Shown here piece after piece: positions 44,805-64,000 of a stretch of DNA of 64,000 bases; position 1 is the first letter of the stretch; the number at the start of each line of letters is the position of its first letter. The notes under the pieces were generated by a model. The model was given only the letters and a program-made list of their open reading frames with translations. It did not search any database and was not told where the DNA came from. This DNA is from a virus, in IMG/VR virus record IMGVR_UViG_3300021475_000001, positions 32,001 to 96,000 of that record. One strand, written 5' to 3'. A program made the translations under genes and the position numbers.

Positions 44805-47800
44805 GTGACGTTCTTACACACGATCAACACCGCTGGAAGAAAGGTGTTCTTTCACTTTCACGATGCGTCCAAGACAAAACGCGTTCACGATGCACCGGTA
44901 TGGAAGGAAGAAGAACACCCGCGCGCTAAGTCTGGACAATTTGTCAAGGGTGCTGGTGTACATCCCAGTGAAAAGCCACAGGCAGCACCGGGTGCTGTGG
45001 TTGTCAATCCTGTTGCACTGGCACTAAAAGAACACGGATACGAGAAGATAAAGAGTAAAAAAGGTACCAATCTATATCACCATCCATTGTCTGGTCATCA
45101 AGTCGAAGTTCATGCCGCCTCTACGGGTCAGAAGTGGCTGACAGGCTGGACGCATTCTGAGGGTGGTACTGGTAGCGGTGCCGGTAAGCTATCCAAGCAT
45201 CTGGCTGGTATCAATCACGGCGCACCGCCAAGCGGTCCGCCAGGTATTCTGCCTGAACTCTCCAAGCAGATGGGACTTGTGCCCAAGCCGACACCGACAC
45301 CACCTCCTACACCAACAGCCACCGCAGCGGTACATCCTAAGCCGCAGATTCACGCCAAGATGACAGAGTTGGGATTTAAGCCCGCTTTTTCTGGTCCCAA
45401 TACCACAACTTACACCAGTCCAACCAAGGGTAAAGTCATTCTAAAGAATGACACACCGGCAACTGGTATTGATAAGGGTAAGTTGAACTGGTCATACACA
45501 CCACCTACTGGCCCGTCTATTTCTGGTCATGGGGTGATGAGTGGTAATCTAGCTAGTACTATTGCTTCTAAGAAATCTGCGTGGGAAAGTGAAACACCTA
45601 GCACAAGTGTCATCGGACCTAAGGGCATCGAGAAGGTACTGCCGAATAAGGAAGTTGTGAACGGCACCACGATCTACGCTAACCCAGATGGATCCGAGTC
45701 AGTTGCCATTAAACCAGATGGCACTTGGAAGATATGGCAGGGTGAGAAGGTCATGGCCTACGGGTCTGGCCAGGAGGGACTTAACAGTGAGTTTGAACAC
45801 CTTCACCCGCGTGGTGAAGGCGGCAAGTTCATCGCCAAACCAAAGCCAGCGGGAGTGAGTGAAGCAGATCACAAGACACTGACCGATGCTGGTTACGAGT
45901 TTGTTGGACCGGCACCTTGGGCGTTTCAGGGTGCCGCTGGTGACATATCTGTTTACGGTAAACCAGACGGCTCGGTTATCTTAGCAAAACCTGCTACTGA
46001 AGCTGGGGGTCAATCTACTATTTTCCCAGTATATCCAAAGATTTTAGAAAGTCCTGATGAGGAAAATTACAAAGATTTGGCGAAGATGCTGGGGACGGCA
46101 CCAAAGCCAGGTGAAGTACCGACTGGTGTTGCTGATCCATATGCATCTTCTGTGGCGTCAGACATAAAAGAGAATATGGATAAACTCGATCAAGCAGAAT
46201 TTCATGAGATGTTGAGCAACAATGGGTTTGTGCCTGTTACGGATATGACAGGTCATACGAAGTTTAAGAAAGGGAATGATTACGTCTATGTTTCTAAGGA
46301 GGATGGAATAGGTGCGCATTGGCAAATTTCTACTCCCAATAACACATTTAATAAAGAAGGTTACGGCATCAACGAACTTTATGATGCACTGGGACTAAAT
46401 CCAGCAACATCAAACTATCAGCCACCATCGACAGGTTTAATGGGAGCATGGCAAGTTCCGATTGAAGTCTCTAACGGACCAAAAGATTTGGGGGACTATT
46501 CGTTTGCCCATCCGGGGTTCCCGGAAGAACCAGCGAATCAGTACGAATTTCCTGATGGTACAAAATTAGTCACCAGTAAAGAATCTGACAAATATGAGTT
46601 TATTGATCCTGAGTATAAGACAATTGCTCATGGTAATGGGCAGCAAGGTCTTGACAATGACGCCTATAATCTTGGCTTGACAGGTAGTCCGCCAGCGACA
46701 GTTCCGCCACCGCCTCCGCCATCAACGGGAGCCTCTAATCTTCAGCAGTCGTTGATGAGTATTGCTAGTCCGTTGAAGAGTGACGGTTTTACTATAACAC
46801 CAGGATTTGATCCTGATGCGATAGTGGGTGTCTTGAATAATGATCCTGACAAGATCAAGATGGCGTTTACTTATAATCATGACACTCAGAAAGGACTTGT
46901 GTCGTGGCAACTGCCTGGTGGACAGCCAGGTGATAGTGAAACATTTACGGGTAATGCCGCTAAATTTTACAACTATGTGAAAACCAAGTTTGATGAGGTT
47001 AAAATCTCGGCGCAAAGTTCACCAATCAAGGCCGAACACTTCAGTAAGAGTACTTTTATACCTACCGAGTTGAATGGTGTTAAGTTTGACAGTTGGACAC
47101 CACCAGCCAATTGGGCTGATGTCGAAGGACAGAATCCGCACATTCAAGAACCGCCGATGACCGCGACACCAAATAAGAAGATCAGTTGTGGTTTGTTGAT
47201 TGAAGAGCCTGATGGACGTGTCTGGATCGTCAAGCCAACAAATTCTTTTGGTGGCTACAATTACACTTTCCCAAAGGGTGGGCAGGAGCCGGGTCAGTCA
47301 CTGCAAACGACAGCGATCAAAGAGGCGTGGGAAGAGAGTGGTCTGAAAGCCGAAATCACCGGCTTTGCTGGTGATTATCTGGGTGACACTAGTATCACGC
47401 GCTACTACCATGCAAAACGTACTGGTGGTACACCAAAAGATTATGACACTGGTGAGACTGAGGGAGTGTCACTCATTCCCAAAGAGGAACTGGGTCAGTA
47501 TCTGAATAAGGCACGTGATCTACAGATTGCCAAGGACCACTTCTCGCCAAAGGCTGTTGGTCATTCGTTACATATGAGTGATCTTACCAAGATTTCTGAT
47601 AAGAAGGGTAGTAATCCTGGTGGTATATACGAAAATCTGGAAGGTAAGAAATACTATGTAAAGCATCTCAAAACAGCACAACATGTGGCTAACGAACTAC
47701 TCGCCGCCGATCTTCTGGCAAAGGGTGGTGGCGGTACGTTGAAGTATCATGCAGTACATGGTGACGGTCCTTTTAAGAATAGTATTGGTACTGATTATGA

Positions 47801-48959
47801 AAACTTGCAAAAGGATAATGTCAGTAAACTGTCACTGAGTGAGAAGAAACAGGCACAGAGCGATTTTGCATTGAATGCTTGGTTGGCTAACTGGGACGCG
47901 GCGGGCACTGGCGGTGACAATGTTGGTATATTGAACGGTAAAGCACTCACTCTTGATGTTGGTGGTGCGTTACTGTATCGAGCAATGGGTGATCCGAAGG
48001 GTAGTGCCTTTGGCAATGATCCCACCGAGTGGAACACATTACGTGACCCGGCCAAGAACTATGATGCCCATAAACTCTATGGTGACATGACGAATGAAGA
48101 ATTGAAAGCATCTGTTGACAAGCTCAACAATATCACCAATAAAGATATTGTAGATGCTGTACACACTTATTTTGATGCTAATAGTGCTGTTGCCACGGAA
48201 CTTACTGACAAGCTGATTGCAAGACGTGATAAATTGTTGGCACTGGGTGCGTCACTTAAGGTCGCAGCACCGCCACCACCACCGCAGCCGACCACACCAC
48301 CGAAACCGACACCGCCGCCGCAACCAAAACAGACACATGCGGCAGGCGTTGGTAGTTATGTCGAAGGTGGATCGTCTTACAGTAAGCAGTATGTGACTTC
48401 ACCCACCGAGCCACATAAAACTCCCAGCCAAGTCTATGATGACTTGAATGCTGCGGTGACTATTCCGTCTTCCGTGCGGAGCGATCTTGTATATTACAAG
48501 GGTAGTGGTTATACGCCAATCAATGACTGTTTACGGTACTCGGATGATTGCGATCACATTAAGCAGGTGAAGCCAATACGCGACTTTATTAAGAATGCCC
48601 CACGCACGTCAAAGCCGTTGACCATGTTTCGTGGTATCAGAAACAAACATGGTTTCACTGATTCGGTGAAGTCACAAATCAAGAAGGCTGAGGCGGCTGG
48701 AGTACCATTTCGTCTGAAAGACGAAGCATTTATGTCCATGTCTACTTCGATAGATGTAGCCAAAGGCTTTGCTGGCTATGATGGTATGGTAGTGATTGTA
48801 GAGGTACCACAAGGCTCACATGTTGCTTCGGTTCATAATGAAATTGGTGAATATGAGAGTCTGGCACAACAAAGTTCGCGTCTGGTATTGACAGGTGAAA
48901 AAGACCAACTTACTGGTGCTTGGAAAGCAAGACTGGATCAATCACACTTAGGAGCTTAA
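44805..48959 (+). CDS. 1384-aa multidomain protein: NUDIX + PI3K/HipA-like kinase fold + VIP2-type ADP-ribosyltransferase
   Basis: Nudix box GGQEPGQSLQTTAIKEAWEESG; YYVK..NE..WLANWD..DN..LDVG; YTPINDCLR, MFRG, FMSMSTS, GEYE. Confidence 0.75.
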   Translation: MTFLHTINTAGRKVFFHFHDASKTKRVHDAPVWKEEEHPRAKSGQFVKGAGVHPSEKPQAAPGAVVVNPVALALKEHGYEKIKSKKGTNLYHHPLSGHQVEVHAASTGQKWLTGWTHSEGGTGSGAGKLSKHLAGINHGAPPSGPPGILPELSKQMGLVPKPTPTPPPTPTATAAVHPKPQIHAKMTELGFKPAFSGPNTTTYTSPTKGKVILKNDTPATGIDKGKLNWSYTPPTGPSISGHGVMSGNLASTIASKKSAWESETPSTSVIGPKGIEKVLPNKEVVNGTTIYANPDGSESVAIKPDGTWKIWQGEKVMAYGSGQEGLNSEFEHLHPRGEGGKFIAKPKPAGVSEADHKTLTDAGYEFVGPAPWAFQGAAGDISVYGKPDGSVILAKPATEAGGQSTIFPVYPKILESPDEENYKDLAKMLGTAPKPGEVPTGVADPYASSVASDIKENMDKLDQAEFHEMLSNNGFVPVTDMTGHTKFKKGNDYVYVSKEDGIGAHWQISTPNNTFNKEGYGINELYDALGLNPATSNYQPPSTGLMGAWQVPIEVSNGPKDLGDYSFAHPGFPEEPANQYEFPDGTKLVTSKESDKYEFIDPEYKTIAHGNGQQGLDNDAYNLGLTGSPPATVPPPPPPSTGASNLQQSLMSIASPLKSDGFTITPGFDPDAIVGVLNNDPDKIKMAFTYNHDTQKGLVSWQLPGGQPGDSETFTGNAAKFYNYVKTKFDEVKISAQSSPIKAEHFSKSTFIPTELNGVKFDSWTPPANWADVEGQNPHIQEPPMTATPNKKISCGLLIEEPDGRVWIVKPTNSFGGYNYTFPKGGQEPGQSLQTTAIKEAWEESGLKAEITGFAGDYLGDTSITRYYHAKRTGGTPKDYDTGETEGVSLIPKEELGQYLNKARDLQIAKDHFSPKAVGHSLHMSDLTKISDKKGSNPGGIYENLEGKKYYVKHLKTAQHVANELLAADLLAKGGGGTLKYHAVHGDGPFKNSIGTDYENLQKDNVSKLSLSEKKQAQSDFALNAWLANWDAAGTGGDNVGILNGKALTLDVGGALLYRAMGDPKGSAFGNDPTEWNTLRDPAKNYDAHKLYGDMTNEELKASVDKLNNITNKDIVDAVHTYFDANSAVATELTDKLIARRDKLLALGASLKVAAPPPPPQPTTPPKPTPPPQPKQTHAAGVGSYVEGGSSYSKQYVTSPTEPHKTPSQVYDDLNAAVTIPSSVRSDLVYYKGSGYTPINDCLRYSDDCDHIKQVKPIRDFIKNAPRTSKPLTMFRGIRNKHGFTDSVKSQIKKAEAAGVPFRLKDEAFMSMSTSIDVAKGFAGYDGMVVIVEVPQGSHVASVHNEIGEYESLAQQSSRLVLTGEKDQLTGAWKARLDQSHLGA

Positions 48960-49263
48960 TCGTGGCAGAAAAAGATGACGACAGTAATCGCTTTGCCTGG
49001 GGTCCAGGTGAAGTGCAGTATGAAGACCCGATCACTGGTGAATGGAAGTGGCTGGGTGAACCCGACCCGAAACGGGTCAAGGCGGTGCAGGCACCAAAGA
49101 AGTCGAAGGACGCCAAGTTGAAGCAGAAGCCGAAAGTACAGGTGCATATACACCGAAAATAGACGCGTTCTGAGCGCGCTACAGTGACATGAAAGACTGA
49201 GACAGTGACAGACAGCGCAAAACAGCTTCAGCGCATCAGGCGCTCGCCGCAGGGCATGTAGCG

Positions 49264-50409
49264 ATGAACGTGCGCGTCTTCGATCATCGAGGCGTCAGAG
49301 TGCGACTGCACGCGCATTCAACACATGACTGTGGTTGCGATTGCAAGTGCGGAAAGACCAGGGACATGTTGGCACGGGTCTTCAGGGTCAGAGACACCAG
49401 GGTCTTTCTACACTTTCATGATTTTGATCCTGAGGAACTGCGTGAACCATCTGGTAAGTGGACAAAAGGTAGTGGAGGAGGTGCTACTGCCAAACCTACC
49501 TCGTCTCGGGGCGGTCGTGCCTCGGCTAATTTTCAGCCATTAGAGAAAGGCCCGGTAATTAAAGGTAAGGGTCAAACTTGGACGCTACCAGGCGGTAAGC
49601 CCCTACCAAGTCATCTCAAAAAACTACTTGAGTCTAAGAAAATACCACCAGGCTGGACTAACCCACGCTTTAATCCTGACCCAAAGGGTCATCTGGTAGT
49701 GGTTGGTGAAGACTCGAAAGGCCGCACACAACCACTGTATTCGGTGAAGCATGACCAGTCACAGGCCGCGGACAAGTTTCGACGTTCGCAGATACTTGAC
49801 GATGGTAAGTTTGACAAGATCATGGCGAAGAACCAGCAAGCTAAGAAGTCGCGTGATCCACGCACACGTGAGCTTGCCGCTGTTCTGTCACTGATTATGC
49901 ACTCGGGTATTCGTCCCGGCTCTGATGTTGACACTGGGGCTGACTACAAGTCGTATGGTGCGACCACGTTGGAGGGTCAGCACGTTGTCACCGATAAAGA
50001 TGGTAACACTTCACTAGTGTATGTTGCTGGTAAGCATAAGGGTAAGGACGTGACGATCAAGATCACTGATCCAGAAATAGCCAAAGATTTGCAGGATCGT
50101 GCAAAGCAAGTTGGTGAAGGTAATCAGTTGTTCCCGCAGTCTGATGCCAGACGATTACTGGCCCATGTCAAAGGTGTTGCTGGTAAAGACTTTAAGACCA
50201 AGGACTTTAGAACTCTGATTGGTACAAAGGTCGCTGGCAACGAAGTCGCCAGTATGCCAGTACCAAAAGACCCAAAAGAGTACAAGAGATTTGTCACCGC
50301 CGTGGCGACCAAGGTGTCTGAGACATTGGGTAACACACCAGCGGTGGCGTTGCAGTCTTATATTTCACCACATGTGTTTGCTAGTTGGAAAATGGCCAGT
50401 GGTGCATGA
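49264..50409 (+). CDS. DNA topoisomerase IB (bacterial/viral type) with N-terminal extension
   Basis: GRTQPLY, GIRPG, YGATTL, GK, KDFRT, LGNTP, SYI catalytic set. Confidence 0.85.
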   Translation: MNVRVFDHRGVRVRLHAHSTHDCGCDCKCGKTRDMLARVFRVRDTRVFLHFHDFDPEELREPSGKWTKGSGGGATAKPTSSRGGRASANFQPLEKGPVIKGKGQTWTLPGGKPLPSHLKKLLESKKIPPGWTNPRFNPDPKGHLVVVGEDSKGRTQPLYSVKHDQSQAADKFRRSQILDDGKFDKIMAKNQQAKKSRDPRTRELAAVLSLIMHSGIRPGSDVDTGADYKSYGATTLEGQHVVTDKDGNTSLVYVAGKHKGKDVTIKITDPEIAKDLQDRAKQVGEGNQLFPQSDARRLLAHVKGVAGKDFKTKDFRTLIGTKVAGNEVASMPVPKDPKEYKRFVTAVATKVSETLGNTPAVALQSYISPHVFASWKMASGA

Positions 50410-50679
50410 TGAGCGAACTAGCCAAACGATCTGATCGTCCGGCGGTGTCGTTGTTTGCGGAGCTTGGTAGGTCTTGTAACGGTTTTGGTTACCGGAAAGT
50501 GGTTGATGCCGGTTTTAATTTGATCATCAATGCCTTCTGTATGTTGTACAAAAATCGTGACGAAGCCATTCGTGAGTGGGACGCGATATCTGTCATTACC
50601 AAGGATAAACTGGTGAACTGCTATGACGAGTCTGGGCGCTTGAAGCGCGCTTACTTCTACAATCAGGTGTTCCCAGACA

Positions 50680-51300
50680 ATGACGGACAACAATCCTAAA
50701 ACATCTGCATCTGGCATTATTGGGCAGATACTGGGATATGTTGATAAGCCGTGGAAAGCCGTTGTCATTATTGCATTTGCTCTAATAGGTGGACTTGGTT
50801 GGTTACTTTATGACCAACGTGATATAATCCTTGAGTCCTGGCTGACACCTGAGTCTCTGGAATTGAAGACGCATGACGTACCGCAAGCACTGGAAAAACT
50901 GACTGAAGAGACAGACGCCGATCTTATTCAGATTTGGGCCGTAGACTTGGGCAGTAATTCACAGCGATTTATCGCCGCTAGACGAAAAGACGGTGAAAGA
51001 CCGATAATACCATCACCGCGTCGGTTGCCGATAATTGTCACTACTTCCGATGTACAAGCACTGGTAGATGTTCTCAATGGTCATCCGACTTGTGTCGATA
51101 CAAGGGAACGTGAGTCACCGCTGATGCGTCGTTTAACTGATCGTGGAGTGGTACGAGCTTGTGCGATGCCGATACCCCCTAGCCCAGAAGCGTTTGTCGG
51201 TGTGATCTATTTGGCCTGGCATAACAAACCTGATTCTCGTGAAGAAGATATTGCGGTATCTGCGGCAAGAGAAGTAGCGGGTCAGCTAATTAAGCGGTGA
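50680..51300 (+). CDS. membrane protein with periplasmic GAF-like domain (possible holin)
   Basis: One TM segment, then ACAMPIP...FVGVIYL; same architecture as T4 holin T. Confidence 0.35.
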   Translation: MTDNNPKTSASGIIGQILGYVDKPWKAVVIIAFALIGGLGWLLYDQRDIILESWLTPESLELKTHDVPQALEKLTEETDADLIQIWAVDLGSNSQRFIAARRKDGERPIIPSPRRLPIIVTTSDVQALVDVLNGHPTCVDTRERESPLMRRLTDRGVVRACAMPIPPSPEAFVGVIYLAWHNKPDSREEDIAVSAAREVAGQLIKR

Positions 51301-51590
51301 ATATTTGGATGTTGTAAATTTGTGTCTTTGAGCGTATGATCTACTGTTAATGGGAGAAGTAAGATGCCTGACATTTCCAAGATGCCGCCTTTACCGGGCG
51401 CACATTATGGTGAATTTCAAGAACAACCGAAGGAAGATGATGATCCGCCGGAGGTTGAAGGCATGGATAATGACGATGACGAATTGGAGGATGAAACTGA
51501 TCCTTCACTAATCGCCATGCTTGGTTTTGATCCGTTAGAGTTGGAGAGTGATGAAGAAGAAAACAAAGGGGATGGTACTAAGCAGAAGGA

Positions 51591-52139
51591 GTGATTGTGG
51601 TGGCGAAACATATACACGTGCATCTGACTAGAGATGCCTTTGTAGAGTCACAACATCCGCGTAAACATGGCGAGTTTGTGAAAAAAGGTACTGGTACTAG
51701 TGGTAAGTCTAGTGCCGGTCCTGCCGCTAAATCGTCGCCAAAATCAACACCAAAAGCCGCACCGGCTAAAGCCGCACCAGCTAAAGCGTCGCCGGCGGAA
51801 CTGCACGCCAAGCACGAAGATATCGCGAAGTCTGTTGTTGCAATGGTGAAGCGTGATCCGTTCTTGGGTAGACATGCTAGTGTCGCTGAATATGGTAATC
51901 CTCTGATTGATCGCAAGAATCCTGATGGTTCTGTGGAATTTAGTATTCGTGATTTAGGTCAGTGGGAGAATCCACCGGAAGCCAGAAATGAAGAAGACTA
52001 CGATTGGCAAGTGCCGACACAGAAGACGAAAGAGGCAGTGAAGAAACTTAAAGAACATATCGAAAAGACTTATGGCGTTAAAGTGGAAGTCAGTGGCAGT
52101 GAGAAGAACTACACCGACTTCACTATCGGTCCAAAGTGA
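51591..52139 (+). CDS. putative head-associated protein with HIHVH/HPR tag
   Basis: KHIHVHLTRDAFVESQHPRKHGEFVKKG. Confidence 0.6.
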   Translation: MIVVAKHIHVHLTRDAFVESQHPRKHGEFVKKGTGTSGKSSAGPAAKSSPKSTPKAAPAKAAPAKASPAELHAKHEDIAKSVVAMVKRDPFLGRHASVAEYGNPLIDRKNPDGSVEFSIRDLGQWENPPEARNEEDYDWQVPTQKTKEAVKKLKEHIEKTYGVKVEVSGSEKNYTDFTIGPK

Positions 52140-52405
52140 GACTTGCCAAGCGTTGATGTTGATACTTCTGGTGGCGGCACTGGTTGCTGATACCATACCG
52201 CAAAGCTGTCAGAAGCTGGTCAAGTTGCAGCATCAATGCGCAGTTGATGGTTGCGATAATCGCGAAATAGAGCGGTTACGTAAACAATGCAAACAGGACA
52301 ATGGTGGTAGTGAGCCAATACAAATACCTCCCTGGAAATGATATGTTATTGCAACGGAGTCGACAGTCGGGCATGTTGACGAGGCAGTGACAGAGGATTC
52401 GTAAT

Positions 52406-62458: not shown

Positions 62459-63436
62459 ATGGCGTCATTTATGGACACGATCTTACGCCGAGCCAGAAAA
62501 GCCACCTCGGACGCCGATCTTGAACAACTCAAGGACGAGATGGAAGGCAAGGTTCCACCCGATCTGATGAACGAGAATGGTGACGATATGAACGGCGATG
62601 GCGATGATGACAAAGGCATTCACATGCACGTTCACCTGCCAAACGGCAATGGTAACGGCAATGGTGACAACGGTGATGGCAAAGATGGTGATCTGACACT
62701 CAAGCATGAAGGTGATGACCCCGATGGTGGTGATATGAACGGCGGGGGTGGTGGCGATCTGGAAGCGCGCGTCCAGGCTCTTGAAGAGCAACTGGCACAG
62801 TTGATGGACGGCGGCGAGGATGAAGTCGAACTGCAAAATCCTGGTGATGCGCAGGACGCCAAGCGTTACATCATGCGGCGTGGCAAGATGCTCAAGGCGC
62901 ACGATGACGAAACCATCCCGGTGCCCGAGCGCGAGCCGGAAATCATTGGTGAAACCGATCTGCCAGGTATCGAAGACCTGGACGCGCGTATGTCAACTGG
63001 TGACTCTATGCGCCAAGAGGTGTTGTGGCAGGACACTATGGCCAAGGGCGAAATCATCGTACCTGGCATTCGTATTCCCACCTTTGACAGCAAGGTGAAG
63101 ATGGGTGTCACGGCGCAGCGTCTGTGTTCGTTTCGTCGTATGACATTGGACACGGCACTCAATCACGAAGCGTCACGCACCATCATGGCCGATCTGGTAG
63201 GGCTAAAGACCCGTGACCAATTGCGCAAGTTGACCTGCGACACACTGAAGATGGCGTTTGAAGCAACTGCCAATGCCATGGGTGCAGAGCGCAACAACAA
63301 CTTTGTGCGCTCCGCAGTTGGTGACACTTCACATGTCAACCAGCCAGCAAAACCATTGGGTGCGCTGACCATCAGTGAAATTCAGCGTCGCAATCGTGAG
63401 GCATGGGCCACCGGCGAGTTCAGAAAGCCTAACTAA
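62459..63436 (+). CDS. probable scaffolding protein
   Basis: Acidic and coiled; EIIVPGI..PTFD as in C-terminal halves of DUF2213 proteins; sits between protease and capsid genes. Confidence 0.6.
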   Translation: MASFMDTILRRARKATSDADLEQLKDEMEGKVPPDLMNENGDDMNGDGDDDKGIHMHVHLPNGNGNGNGDNGDGKDGDLTLKHEGDDPDGGDMNGGGGGDLEARVQALEEQLAQLMDGGEDEVELQNPGDAQDAKRYIMRRGKMLKAHDDETIPVPEREPEIIGETDLPGIEDLDARMSTGDSMRQEVLWQDTMAKGEIIVPGIRIPTFDSKVKMGVTAQRLCSFRRMTLDTALNHEASRTIMADLVGLKTRDQLRKLTCDTLKMAFEATANAMGAERNNNFVRSAVGDTSHVNQPAKPLGALTISEIQRRNREAWATGEFRKPN

Positions 63437-63464
63437 GCTTCTCTCGCTAAAAGGAGTTGCTGCA

Positions 63465-63983
63465 ATGGTCGCTTTTACTTTTCGCATGAATGCCGGCATC
63501 CCCGGTGAACTCAGCCGTTTTCAGACACTTGGTACCACTGTCACTCCCGAGACGCAAAACTCCGCCACGCCAGTGACGGAATATGGTGTGCCGGTGATCG
63601 TCAACAACAATGGTACACGTCCGGTGACGGCAACCGATGTCACGGCCGATGCTGAAGCTGGGTTTCTGGTGAGGCCATATCCTGGGGGTGACAGAACCGT
63701 TGCATTCCCACAAGGTACCATTCCGTTTGGCTCGGGCACACCACCAAATATCGGTCTGGTCGATATGATGCGACGCGGCTTTATGACCGTGCGACTTGGT
63801 GGCAGTGTTGCACCACAAAAGAATGGCCCTGTCTGGGTGTGGACCGCAGCGACTGCTGCACCGCATGTGCAGGGACATGTGGAAGCGGCTGACCCAACCA
63901 CCAGCGGCTTTAAGATAAACAAGGCATTCTTTCGTGGGCCAGCCGACGCGGCCGGCAACACCGAAATTGGCTACAACGTTTAG
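63465..63983 (+). CDS. capsid decoration/cement protein
   Basis: AF.FRM.AGIPG..SR, GFLVRPYP, MRRGFMTV, EIGYNV; position typical just upstream of a major capsid gene. Confidence 0.65.
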   Translation: MVAFTFRMNAGIPGELSRFQTLGTTVTPETQNSATPVTEYGVPVIVNNNGTRPVTATDVTADAEAGFLVRPYPGGDRTVAFPQGTIPFGSGTPPNIGLVDMMRRGFMTVRLGGSVAPQKNGPVWVWTAATAAPHVQGHVEAADPTTSGFKINKAFFRGPADAAGNTEIGYNV

Positions 63984-64000
63984 TCACTGATTGCACTCGT

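Follow-up and report, generated by a model that had tools for sequence, protein, structure and literature searches.

Head genes and their alternating-histidine strands

The window analyzed here, 64,000 nucleotides of the IMG/VR virus record IMGVR_UViG_3300021475_000001, comprises bases 32001-96000 of a single 111,039-bp contig and includes a phage head module that spans positions 44805-64000 (positions refer to the window unless stated otherwise). About ten proteins of this 111-kb phage carry, at their ends, an alternating-histidine peptide such as KHIHVHL, hereafter the HxHxH strand, which might recruit proteins into the assembling head. The module encodes, broadly in this order, a 1384-amino-acid (aa) protein in which a NUDIX and an ADP-ribosyltransferase domain are combined, topoisomerase IB, what is probably the terminase, a portal (DUF1073), three basic proteins of small size, a MuF-like and a DUF2213 protein, the scaffold and a phrog_563 head protein; the gene for a PF09950-type major capsid protein begins just beyond the window end. 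The portal and the DUF2213 protease share 45-55% identity with their counterparts in phages of Burkholderia, Acinetobacter, Bordetella and Edwardsiella, and no close cultured phage was found at the DNA level.

The strand is N-terminal in five presumptive cargo proteins, C-terminal in the protease, a 66-aa protein and the portal, and internal in the scaffold. In the scaffolding protein (62459-63436, plus strand, like all genes described below unless noted), GIHMHVHL (62615-62638) lies between Asp/Gly/Asn low-complexity linkers, and ATSDA is found at 62501-62515. The prohead protease (61836-62447; domain at residues 1-175) ends in a disordered tail in which TTRDS (62376-62390) is followed by ten residues, PIHLHVHL (62421-62444) and the stop codon. 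The portal (55701-57437; Phage_portal_3/DUF1073, Pfam 1.1e-105) has two copies, YHFHI (57336-57356) and VYHLHTHD (57387-57410), in a poorly conserved C-terminal tail. The 66-aa basic protein (48962-49162; isoelectric point (pI) 9.5), which according to the translation of its open reading frame (ORF) starts with GTG directly after the stop of the 1384-aa ORF, likewise has the order body, site and tag, with KSKDA (49100-49114), ten residues, VQVHIHRK (49136-49159) and the stop at its C-terminus.

Among the candidate cargo, the largest is the 1384-aa polyvalent protein (44805-48959; GTG start with a ribosome-binding site), with NUDIX at residues 794-902 (Pfam 3.2e-14) and ADP-ribosyltransferase at residues 1221-1350 (ADPrib_exo_Tox, 1e-07); its leader contains FFHFHDA (44847-44867, from residue 15) and D-A sites at 44862-44867 and 44880-44894. 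Topoisomerase IB (49264-50409; Pfam Topoisom_I, 1.9e-16) has two leaders, RLHAHSTH-D (49303-49332, with RLHAHSTH at 49303-49326) and RVRD-T-RVFLHFHD-F (49384-49425, with FLHFHDF at 49405-49425); between them, at residues 23-34 (49330-49365), there is a cysteine cluster, C-G-C-D-C-K-C-G. The basic Ala/Pro/Lys-rich protein of the 51591 gene (51597-52139; ~180 aa, pI 9.4) matches phrog_38558 in its C-terminal part and no Pfam family, and starts with a three-part leader, namely, AKHIHVHL (51603-51626), LTRDA (51624-51638) and FVESQHPRKHGEF (51639-51677). A very basic Pro/Lys-rich protein (59115-59606; 163 aa, pI 11.7) begins M-KHIHVHIH (59115-59141), with VTRDV at 59184-59198, and its orthologue in a related phage, L012, begins MPRHIHVHLHDA. 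Finally, a very basic protein of 173 aa (59820-60341; pI 11.5) begins MAG-KHIHVHLH (59826-59852) followed by RTADA (59853-59867); its positional counterpart in L012, just upstream of MuF and compared at the leader only, begins MTKHIHVHLHDS. Positions of ribosome-binding sites place the strand 2-4 residues past the initiator in the 51591, 59115 and 59820 genes. The small tagged proteins are very basic (pI 9.4-11.7) and disordered-looking.

We compared the occurrence of the pattern [VILFMYW]-H-[VILFMYW]-H-x (aliphatic/aromatic-His-x-His-x) with a null model of 1000 within-protein shuffles of 160 crude ORFs. The genome contains 13 sites in 10 of the 160 ORFs, vs a mean of 1.33 in the shuffles (maximum 6), and the 23 plus-strand ORFs of 44805-64000 account for 11 sites in 8 proteins, vs 0.27 expected (maximum 3). 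Only two sites occur outside the head module, at 1-176 and at genome position 104125-104571, both on the minus strand; the former is an internal D-H-F-H-I-H-F-H-E in a 78-aa, Cys-containing ORF that extends past the window start. The initial annotation, made from the sequence alone, had pointed to related motifs in head-assembly proteins, and every peptide that it quoted, including the copies in the portal, the protease C-terminus, the scaffold and the 66-aa protein, is present at the position given. The copies differ in synonymous codons (CAT/CAC, ATA/ATC/ATT and GTG/GTC/GTT), which indicates that selection acts on the peptide rather than on a DNA repeat. A DNA-level repeat or a regulatory site as the cause of the motif can be ruled out on the same grounds.

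The protease and the scaffold both match phrog_1961, the former at positions 1-180 and the latter at 212-414, which indicates that relatives encode a single fused protein. In a subset of these protease-scaffold fusions, G-[DE]-T-H-I-H-[IV]-H is found ~50 residues past the protease domain, between acidic/glycine low-complexity stretches, and both the tail of the window protease and the N-terminus of the scaffold align to this single linker-plus-motif. The scaffold aligns with the C-terminal half of the DUF2213-scaffold fusions, and H55, H57 and H59 are invariant among the motif-bearing members. Retention of the motif on both split halves suggests that it is more than a mere cut site, which need not survive at a free C-terminus. 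In L012, the protease ends with RRIHLHVHL and the scaffold contains GIHMHVHLPGNGNG, with adjoining residues that differ from those in the window. The two C-terminal portal motifs noted in the initial annotation are likewise kept, with diverged flanks, in the portal of L003, which is 76% identical; the other 67 related portals include one doubtful KHLHM (L052) and otherwise lack the motif, so that these copies are peculiar to the window phage and one close relative.

The identity of the protease is well supported by profile matches, to the PHROG head maturation protease (4.3e-50) and to Pfam DUF2213 (PF09979; 1.2e-48 over the whole profile). H78, S134 and H158 are invariant in 43 sequences and, by analogy, would form a His-Ser-His catalytic triad. 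An AlphaFold2 (AF2) model has a confident domain at residues 1-175 (predicted local distance difference test (pLDDT) >90) and a tail below 60; its best-ranking Foldseek matches are exclusively to T4 gp21 and herpesvirus assemblins, although these are weak (E ~1e-2; template modelling score 0.36-0.45). A sequence conserved past the protease domain, A-F-K-A-K-D-E, may be a release site, but it is located within a confidently predicted helix of an AF2 model.

A candidate cleavage site next to the strand

The D-(A/S) that the initial annotation saw after many of the motifs is a real feature: among 85 tagged proteins, the first D is mostly located 0-7 residues past the strand, with T at -2 in 59, R/K at -1 in 42 and A at +1 in 57. 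T-(R/K)-D-A occurs no more than 14 residues from the tag in 68 of the 85 proteins, vs 2.7 expected. In every window case with a recognisable site, it separates the strand from the body, whether the tag is N- or C-terminal. The N-terminal tags have the sites HVHL-TRD/A, HVHIH..VTRD/V and HVHLH-RTAD/A (the slash marks the putative cut), and the C-terminal ones have TTRD/S..IHLHVHL-stop in the protease and KSKD/A..VQVHIHRK-stop in the 66-aa protein. The portal tail contains no clear T-(R/K)-D site.

The same sequence heads proteins of the shell itself. R-A-[RK]-T-R-D, followed by x2-3-T-F-D, is found near the N-terminus of the capsid proteins in this family, in 38 distinct contexts, and occurs in phages with as well as without HxHxH. 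In phrog_563 proteins with a leader, the D invariably precedes the Arg of a conserved [FY]-R-M anchor by six residues (17 of 17), and most leaderless homologues (48 of 53) have their initiator Met 6-8 residues ahead of this anchor. The phrog_563-type head protein of the window (63465-63983; PHROG, 6.6e-20) is leaderless, and its likely start, MVAFTFRM, falls on the residue that follows T-R-D in the leader-bearing homologues. This coincidence of natural N-termini with the residue after D is comparative evidence that the DUF2213 enzyme cuts after D, and we infer that T-(R/K)-D is its cut site. Cleavage after Asp, as suggested in the initial annotation, is thus plausible given that T-(R/K)-D heads capsid proteins and that leaderless homologues start after the D.

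The leader ending in R-A-R-T-R-D is common to capsid and phrog_563 proteins in L101, L090, L116, L108 and other loci, and in L002 (7864-8469 and 8526-9695), in some cases with an Ala/Leu-rich hydrophobic stretch before it. Forms with the leader occur in HxHxH-bearing phages in 14 of 15 cases, and leaderless forms in motif-free phages in 46 of 52.

Leader modularity, distribution across phages and the HPR motif

A profile built from six leaders was searched against 1.84 billion representative proteins, which yielded 661 clusters at E<=1e-3, and the best 150 matches were inspected. About 62 of these are small proteins (48-400 aa) that match from residue 1, with the consensus M-[AT]-[KR]-H-I-H-[IV]-H-x-H, 2-6 residues, T-[RK]-D-A, and x-[FW]-x-E-x-x-H-P-R-x3-G-x-F-G-S-G-G-G; a Pfam domain was identified in none of the ~62. 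In addition, two DNA pattern scans of IMG/VR, with KHIHVH[LIF]H and ATG-NNN-KHIHIH, recovered ~28 loci with the HxHxH peptide directly after the start codon of visibly unrelated proteins, along with 15 further loci that are chance matches. Head-module homologues (DUF2213 protease, DUF1073 portal, MuF or PF09950 capsid protein; detected by tblastn in the few kilobases retrieved and by Pfam checks) are present in 22 of the 28 true loci vs none of the 15 chance loci. Overall, a short terminal peptide, at residues 1-12 or at the extreme C-terminus, is common to unrelated head proteins, and the shared tag on unrelated proteins proposed in the initial annotation is, so far as HxHxH is concerned, a modular terminal element that in other phages, too, is confined to head gene clusters. 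The modularity extends to the inside of proteins. In one relative, P0004, the leader occurs at internal module starts, one of them before topoisomerase IB, which is a separate gene in the window and in P0004 is fused behind a polyvalent protein with the leader retained at the junction.

A homologue search with the 40-residue leader recovered only its own cluster, a search in which the word index is ill-suited to short tags, and tblastn of the leader against cultured phages gave no match. The cultured Edwardsiella phage vB_EpM_ZHS (OM621816.1) carries all the elements: ZHS_5 begins KQIHIHLHRHATQD-TNWEESKHPR..GKF, ZHS_11 has ATHVHIHNYGG at the protease-scaffold junction, and RARTRD is present in both ZHS_12 and the capsid protein ZHS_13.

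The leaders tend to occur together with the motif on the protease-scaffold protein, in agreement with the co-assembly link made in the initial annotation. Wherever a tag-first locus includes the protease ORF (14 of 14), HxHxH is present at its junction with the scaffold or at its end. Conversely, among 80 protease-first loci, 19 have HxHxH and 59 complete ORFs lack it; N-terminal tags, scored by a fixed criterion, were found in 5 of the 19 motif-bearing vs 0 of the 59 motif-free loci (Fisher p=5.5e-4). In a tree built from 94 protease domains, 16 of the 34 rows with the motif have the leader, vs 0 of the 60 rows without it. Some relatives have further fusions: in P0152, P0155 and P0004, a ParB-like domain (D-G-H-H-R-W-A-A-R) is joined to a DUF2213 protease or polyvalent protein, with A-R-D-A and then HxHxH, terminal or at a junction, after it, and in P0153 the protease is fused to a Zeta-toxin/AAA_33 domain.

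The second motif of the leaders, HPR..G.F, has a different distribution. The window contains three clear copies, two in the 1384-aa protein (44901-44942 and 45804-45830) and one in the 51597 protein (51639-51677), and a degenerate one, EELREPSGKW (49432-49461), after leader 2 of topoisomerase IB. Two of the copies fully fit the pattern [FW]-x-E-x-x-H-P-R-x(2-4)-G-x-[FW]; in the one at 45804-45830, the aromatic residue is one position nearer HPR. All three clear copies are located at module starts of proteins encoded among head genes, each after a putative protease site. About 85 profile matches are giant proteins (450-7334 aa) that match the HPR half only; they carry 3-19 copies of it, placed between domains that include ART-PolyVal, NUDIX, GNAT and Zeta toxin, and HxHxH is absent from nearly all of them. 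The HPR..G.F motif is therefore an independent and far more widespread module-start motif, in contrast to the HxHxH strand, which is restricted to part of the DUF2213 lineage. The initial annotation had combined the two into a single tag; both motifs are real, but the unity is not borne out, given the up to 19 HPR repeats in giants without HxHxH. We found no published description of either motif in the literature on phage capsids, DUF2213 or DUF2184/DUF1073, and the survey of polyvalent proteins by Iyer et al. 2017 (PMC5512222) mentions neither. The new element here is the alternating-histidine strand, which is lineage-specific and distinct from the widespread HPR tag. In the 59820 protein, D-A-G-T-S-E-G-A-(R/K)-K-A-A-Q-T-R occurs twice (residues ~15 and ~83) and, being placed where other leaders have HPR, may be an alternative module-start motif.

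Proposed function and comparison with known systems

We see about an even chance that the HxHxH strand is a like-with-like docking element centered on the scaffold, removed by the protease and working like the T4 capsid-targeting sequence (CTS). Under this scheme, an amphipathic strand of alternating His and aliphatic residues, (K/R)-x-I-H-V-H-L-(H), would be exposed on the scaffold between low-complexity linkers and would also be present on everything that the scaffold brings into the procapsid, that is, on the C-terminus of the protease, the C-terminal tail of the portal and the N-termini of the cargo (three small basic proteins, the NUDIX/ADP-ribosyltransferase polyvalent protein and topoisomerase IB). 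The strands would pair like with like by beta pairing, possibly bridged by Zn2+, with the scaffold as the hub. The assemblin-like DUF2213 protease would then cut after the D of T-(R/K)-D between strand and body, so that on maturation the strand would be lost and the proteins released within the head, and HPR..G.F, where present, would remain at the new N-terminus of the mature protein. More tentatively, and with less probability, the strand might constitute a portable peptide code, in which a strand of 6-8 alternating-His residues on the scaffold recruits any minor head component with the same strand through Zn-bridged pairing, with release at T-R-D. In that case, a prefix of ~16 residues could load arbitrary proteins into these capsids, and the packaged proteome of a large group of uncultured phages could be recognized from sequence.

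Several observations weigh against strand-to-strand docking on the scaffold with release at T-(R/K)-D. Of the 85 leaders behind the site statistics, 62 came from a profile already containing D-A. Several window leaders have weak sites (H-D-A, T-A-D-A and S-K-D-A), and the window capsid and phrog_563 proteins are leaderless and lack T-R-D, so that in the window phage the site is found only on tagged proteins. In AF2 models of the protease and of the fusion protein P0175, HxHxH falls in low-confidence, unpaired segments, which means that the models show no docking site and lend the scheme no structural support. The well-supported branches of the protease tree force just one change of motif state, and accordingly a single gain or loss could explain much of the co-occurrence, which may partly reflect descent; an independent-pairs test on the same tree had one well-supported pair and, hence, no power. 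Gene starts and the gene set themselves come from crude ORF calls (160 ORFs). A predicted complex of the protease, scaffold residues 1-110, two Zn and leader residues 1-45 (interaction prediction score from aligned errors (ipSAE) 0.02) speaks neither for nor against binding.

Instead of docking on the scaffold, the strand could be an exosite or extended substrate site of the DUF2213 protease, with the scaffold copy serving the scaffold's own processing. Assemblin-type proteases bind their substrates as extended strands, HxHxH always adjoins the putative T-(R/K)-D site, and the motif of the fusion proteins is located ~50 residues past the protease domain. We nevertheless consider this explanation unlikely because the main substrates, the capsid proteins, have T-R-D without HxHxH, close proteases (52-68% identical) occur in phages with and without the strand, and the split protease keeps its C-terminal HxHxH past its own T-T-R-D, where nothing is left to cut. 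Binding of the strand to a third partner common to all carriers, such as the inner surface of the capsid or, via metal ions, the packaged DNA, would account equally well for the co-occurrence data, which fit one common receptor; all carriers finish inside the shell, and the strand is terminal, short and portable, like the loading peptides of encapsulins. However, PF09950 capsids are alike with or without the motif (49-58% identity to that of the window phage), with no motif-specific feature seen, and self-pairing would be more economical than competition between the scaffold and its cargo for the same receptor, so that we assign to this possibility a lower probability still.

The least probable explanation, in our assessment, is a function after assembly or in the host, such as binding of Zn, Ni or Cu, pH sensing or DNA condensation, with the placement among head genes resulting from common descent. 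Alternating His residues do bind metals, a single origin of the motif state is compatible with the protease tree, and about half of the leaders would yield, after Met removal, an X-X-H N-terminus resembling the amino-terminal Cu(II)- and Ni(II)-binding (ATCUN) motif. Yet His at position 3 is not conserved, the attached bodies are unrelated, ranging from an enzyme and basic disordered proteins to the protease, scaffold and portal, and the site between tag and body points to removal. ATCUN (X-X-His) as the selected feature can be ruled out, given that the position of His after Met removal is not conserved.

The scaffold-docking reading has its closest counterpart in T4, where gp21, the prohead protease, cuts the CTS, an N-terminal propeptide, from IPI-III and Alt; both ends of Alt are processed, and the termini of gp21 itself are suspected targeting peptides (PMC9026906). 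Here, as in T4, a short N-terminal peptide, which would be a propeptide, is found on unrelated candidate internal or injected proteins with a putative prohead-protease site immediately after it; the CTS targets proteins to the scaffolding core, the same role that we propose here. Furthermore, the candidate cargo of the window, like that of T4, includes an ADP-ribosyltransferase, and the small tagged proteins of the window, like the T4 internal proteins, are very basic and disordered-looking. There is no sequence likeness to the CTS (MKTYQEFIAE-like, with L/I-x-E sites), which makes the strand an analogue rather than a homologue; moreover, the protease family here is DUF2213 rather than gp21/S77, and the same strand is also present on the scaffold, protease and portal, suggesting like-with-like pairing.

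Other head assembly systems share single aspects of the proposed scheme. In P22-type scaffolds, a region apart from the coat-binding end brings portal and ejection proteins into the procapsid, much as we propose for the scaffold here, although P22 is not known to have a maturation protease and we know of no peptide code common to the recruited proteins. Encapsulin cargo-loading peptides and the C-terminal targeting tail of the HK97 protease are short terminal peptides that load an HK97-fold shell by binding the shell protein; unlike HxHxH, they are not known to be repeated on a scaffold and are not alternating-His strands. In the staphylococcal phage 80alpha, capsid and scaffold proteins have like N-terminal leaders cut by the host protease Prp, which resembles the leader on two unrelated head proteins (capsid and phrog_563) ending in one conserved site, R-A-R-T-R-D, but with a different protease (host Prp rather than phage DUF2213) and a different site. 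The HxHxH strands contain nearly the same heptad as the designed catalytic amyloid peptides IHIHIQI and IHVHLQI, which form parallel beta-sheets by self-assembly and bind Zn2+ through their His face (PMC8431744). Those peptides are synthetic, free and at high concentration, whereas sheet formation by the natural strands is only proposed.

The 1384-aa protein resembles the phage polyvalent proteins (PMC5512222) in combining NUDIX and ADP-ribosyltransferase in one ORF, with the likely gene for the large terminase subunit (53362) ~4.4 kb downstream, and the relative P0004 adds topoisomerase IB to this set. Unlike polyvalent proteins with an embedded zincin-like MPTase (metallopeptidase) domain, it contains no peptidase family detectable with Pfam or PHROGs.

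How phages choose the proteins that are packaged in their heads is, to our knowledge, understood in detail for T4 alone and in part for P22. In the present case, a simple rule, an alternating-His strand followed by T-R-D, appears to label head-packaged proteins in a widespread, mostly uncultured group of phages, and its presence on the scaffold as well as the protease and portal offers a clue to the mechanism, with the lineage-specific HxHxH strand now separated from the widespread HPR tag. If this is correct, sequence alone would suffice to predict packaged or injected effectors, and the DUF2213 proteases, an uncharacterised family, would gain a defined cut site. The strand would also be a short natural capsid-loading tag.

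The MuF-like minor head protein (60387-61205; Pfam Phage_Mu_F, 1.5e-16) belongs to the head module and is without HxHxH. The likely terminase genes, with the large subunit at 53362, were called from position, size and a terS-terL assignment in the initial annotation; the 53362 ORF matched no Pfam family. A 76-aa, extremely acidic protein (51364-51594; pI 4.1, 27 D+E) is encoded immediately before the basic tagged protein, with its stop overlapping the start of that gene at 51591, and may be a charge-matched partner or chaperone of the latter. Right after the portal gene, there is a gene for a 228-aa proline-rich protein (57615-58301) with many (E/A)-H-P-I-x-(L/I)-P repeats and no family match; a shorter homologue with HPIVLPP repeats is likewise located after the portal gene in L003 (3374-3802).

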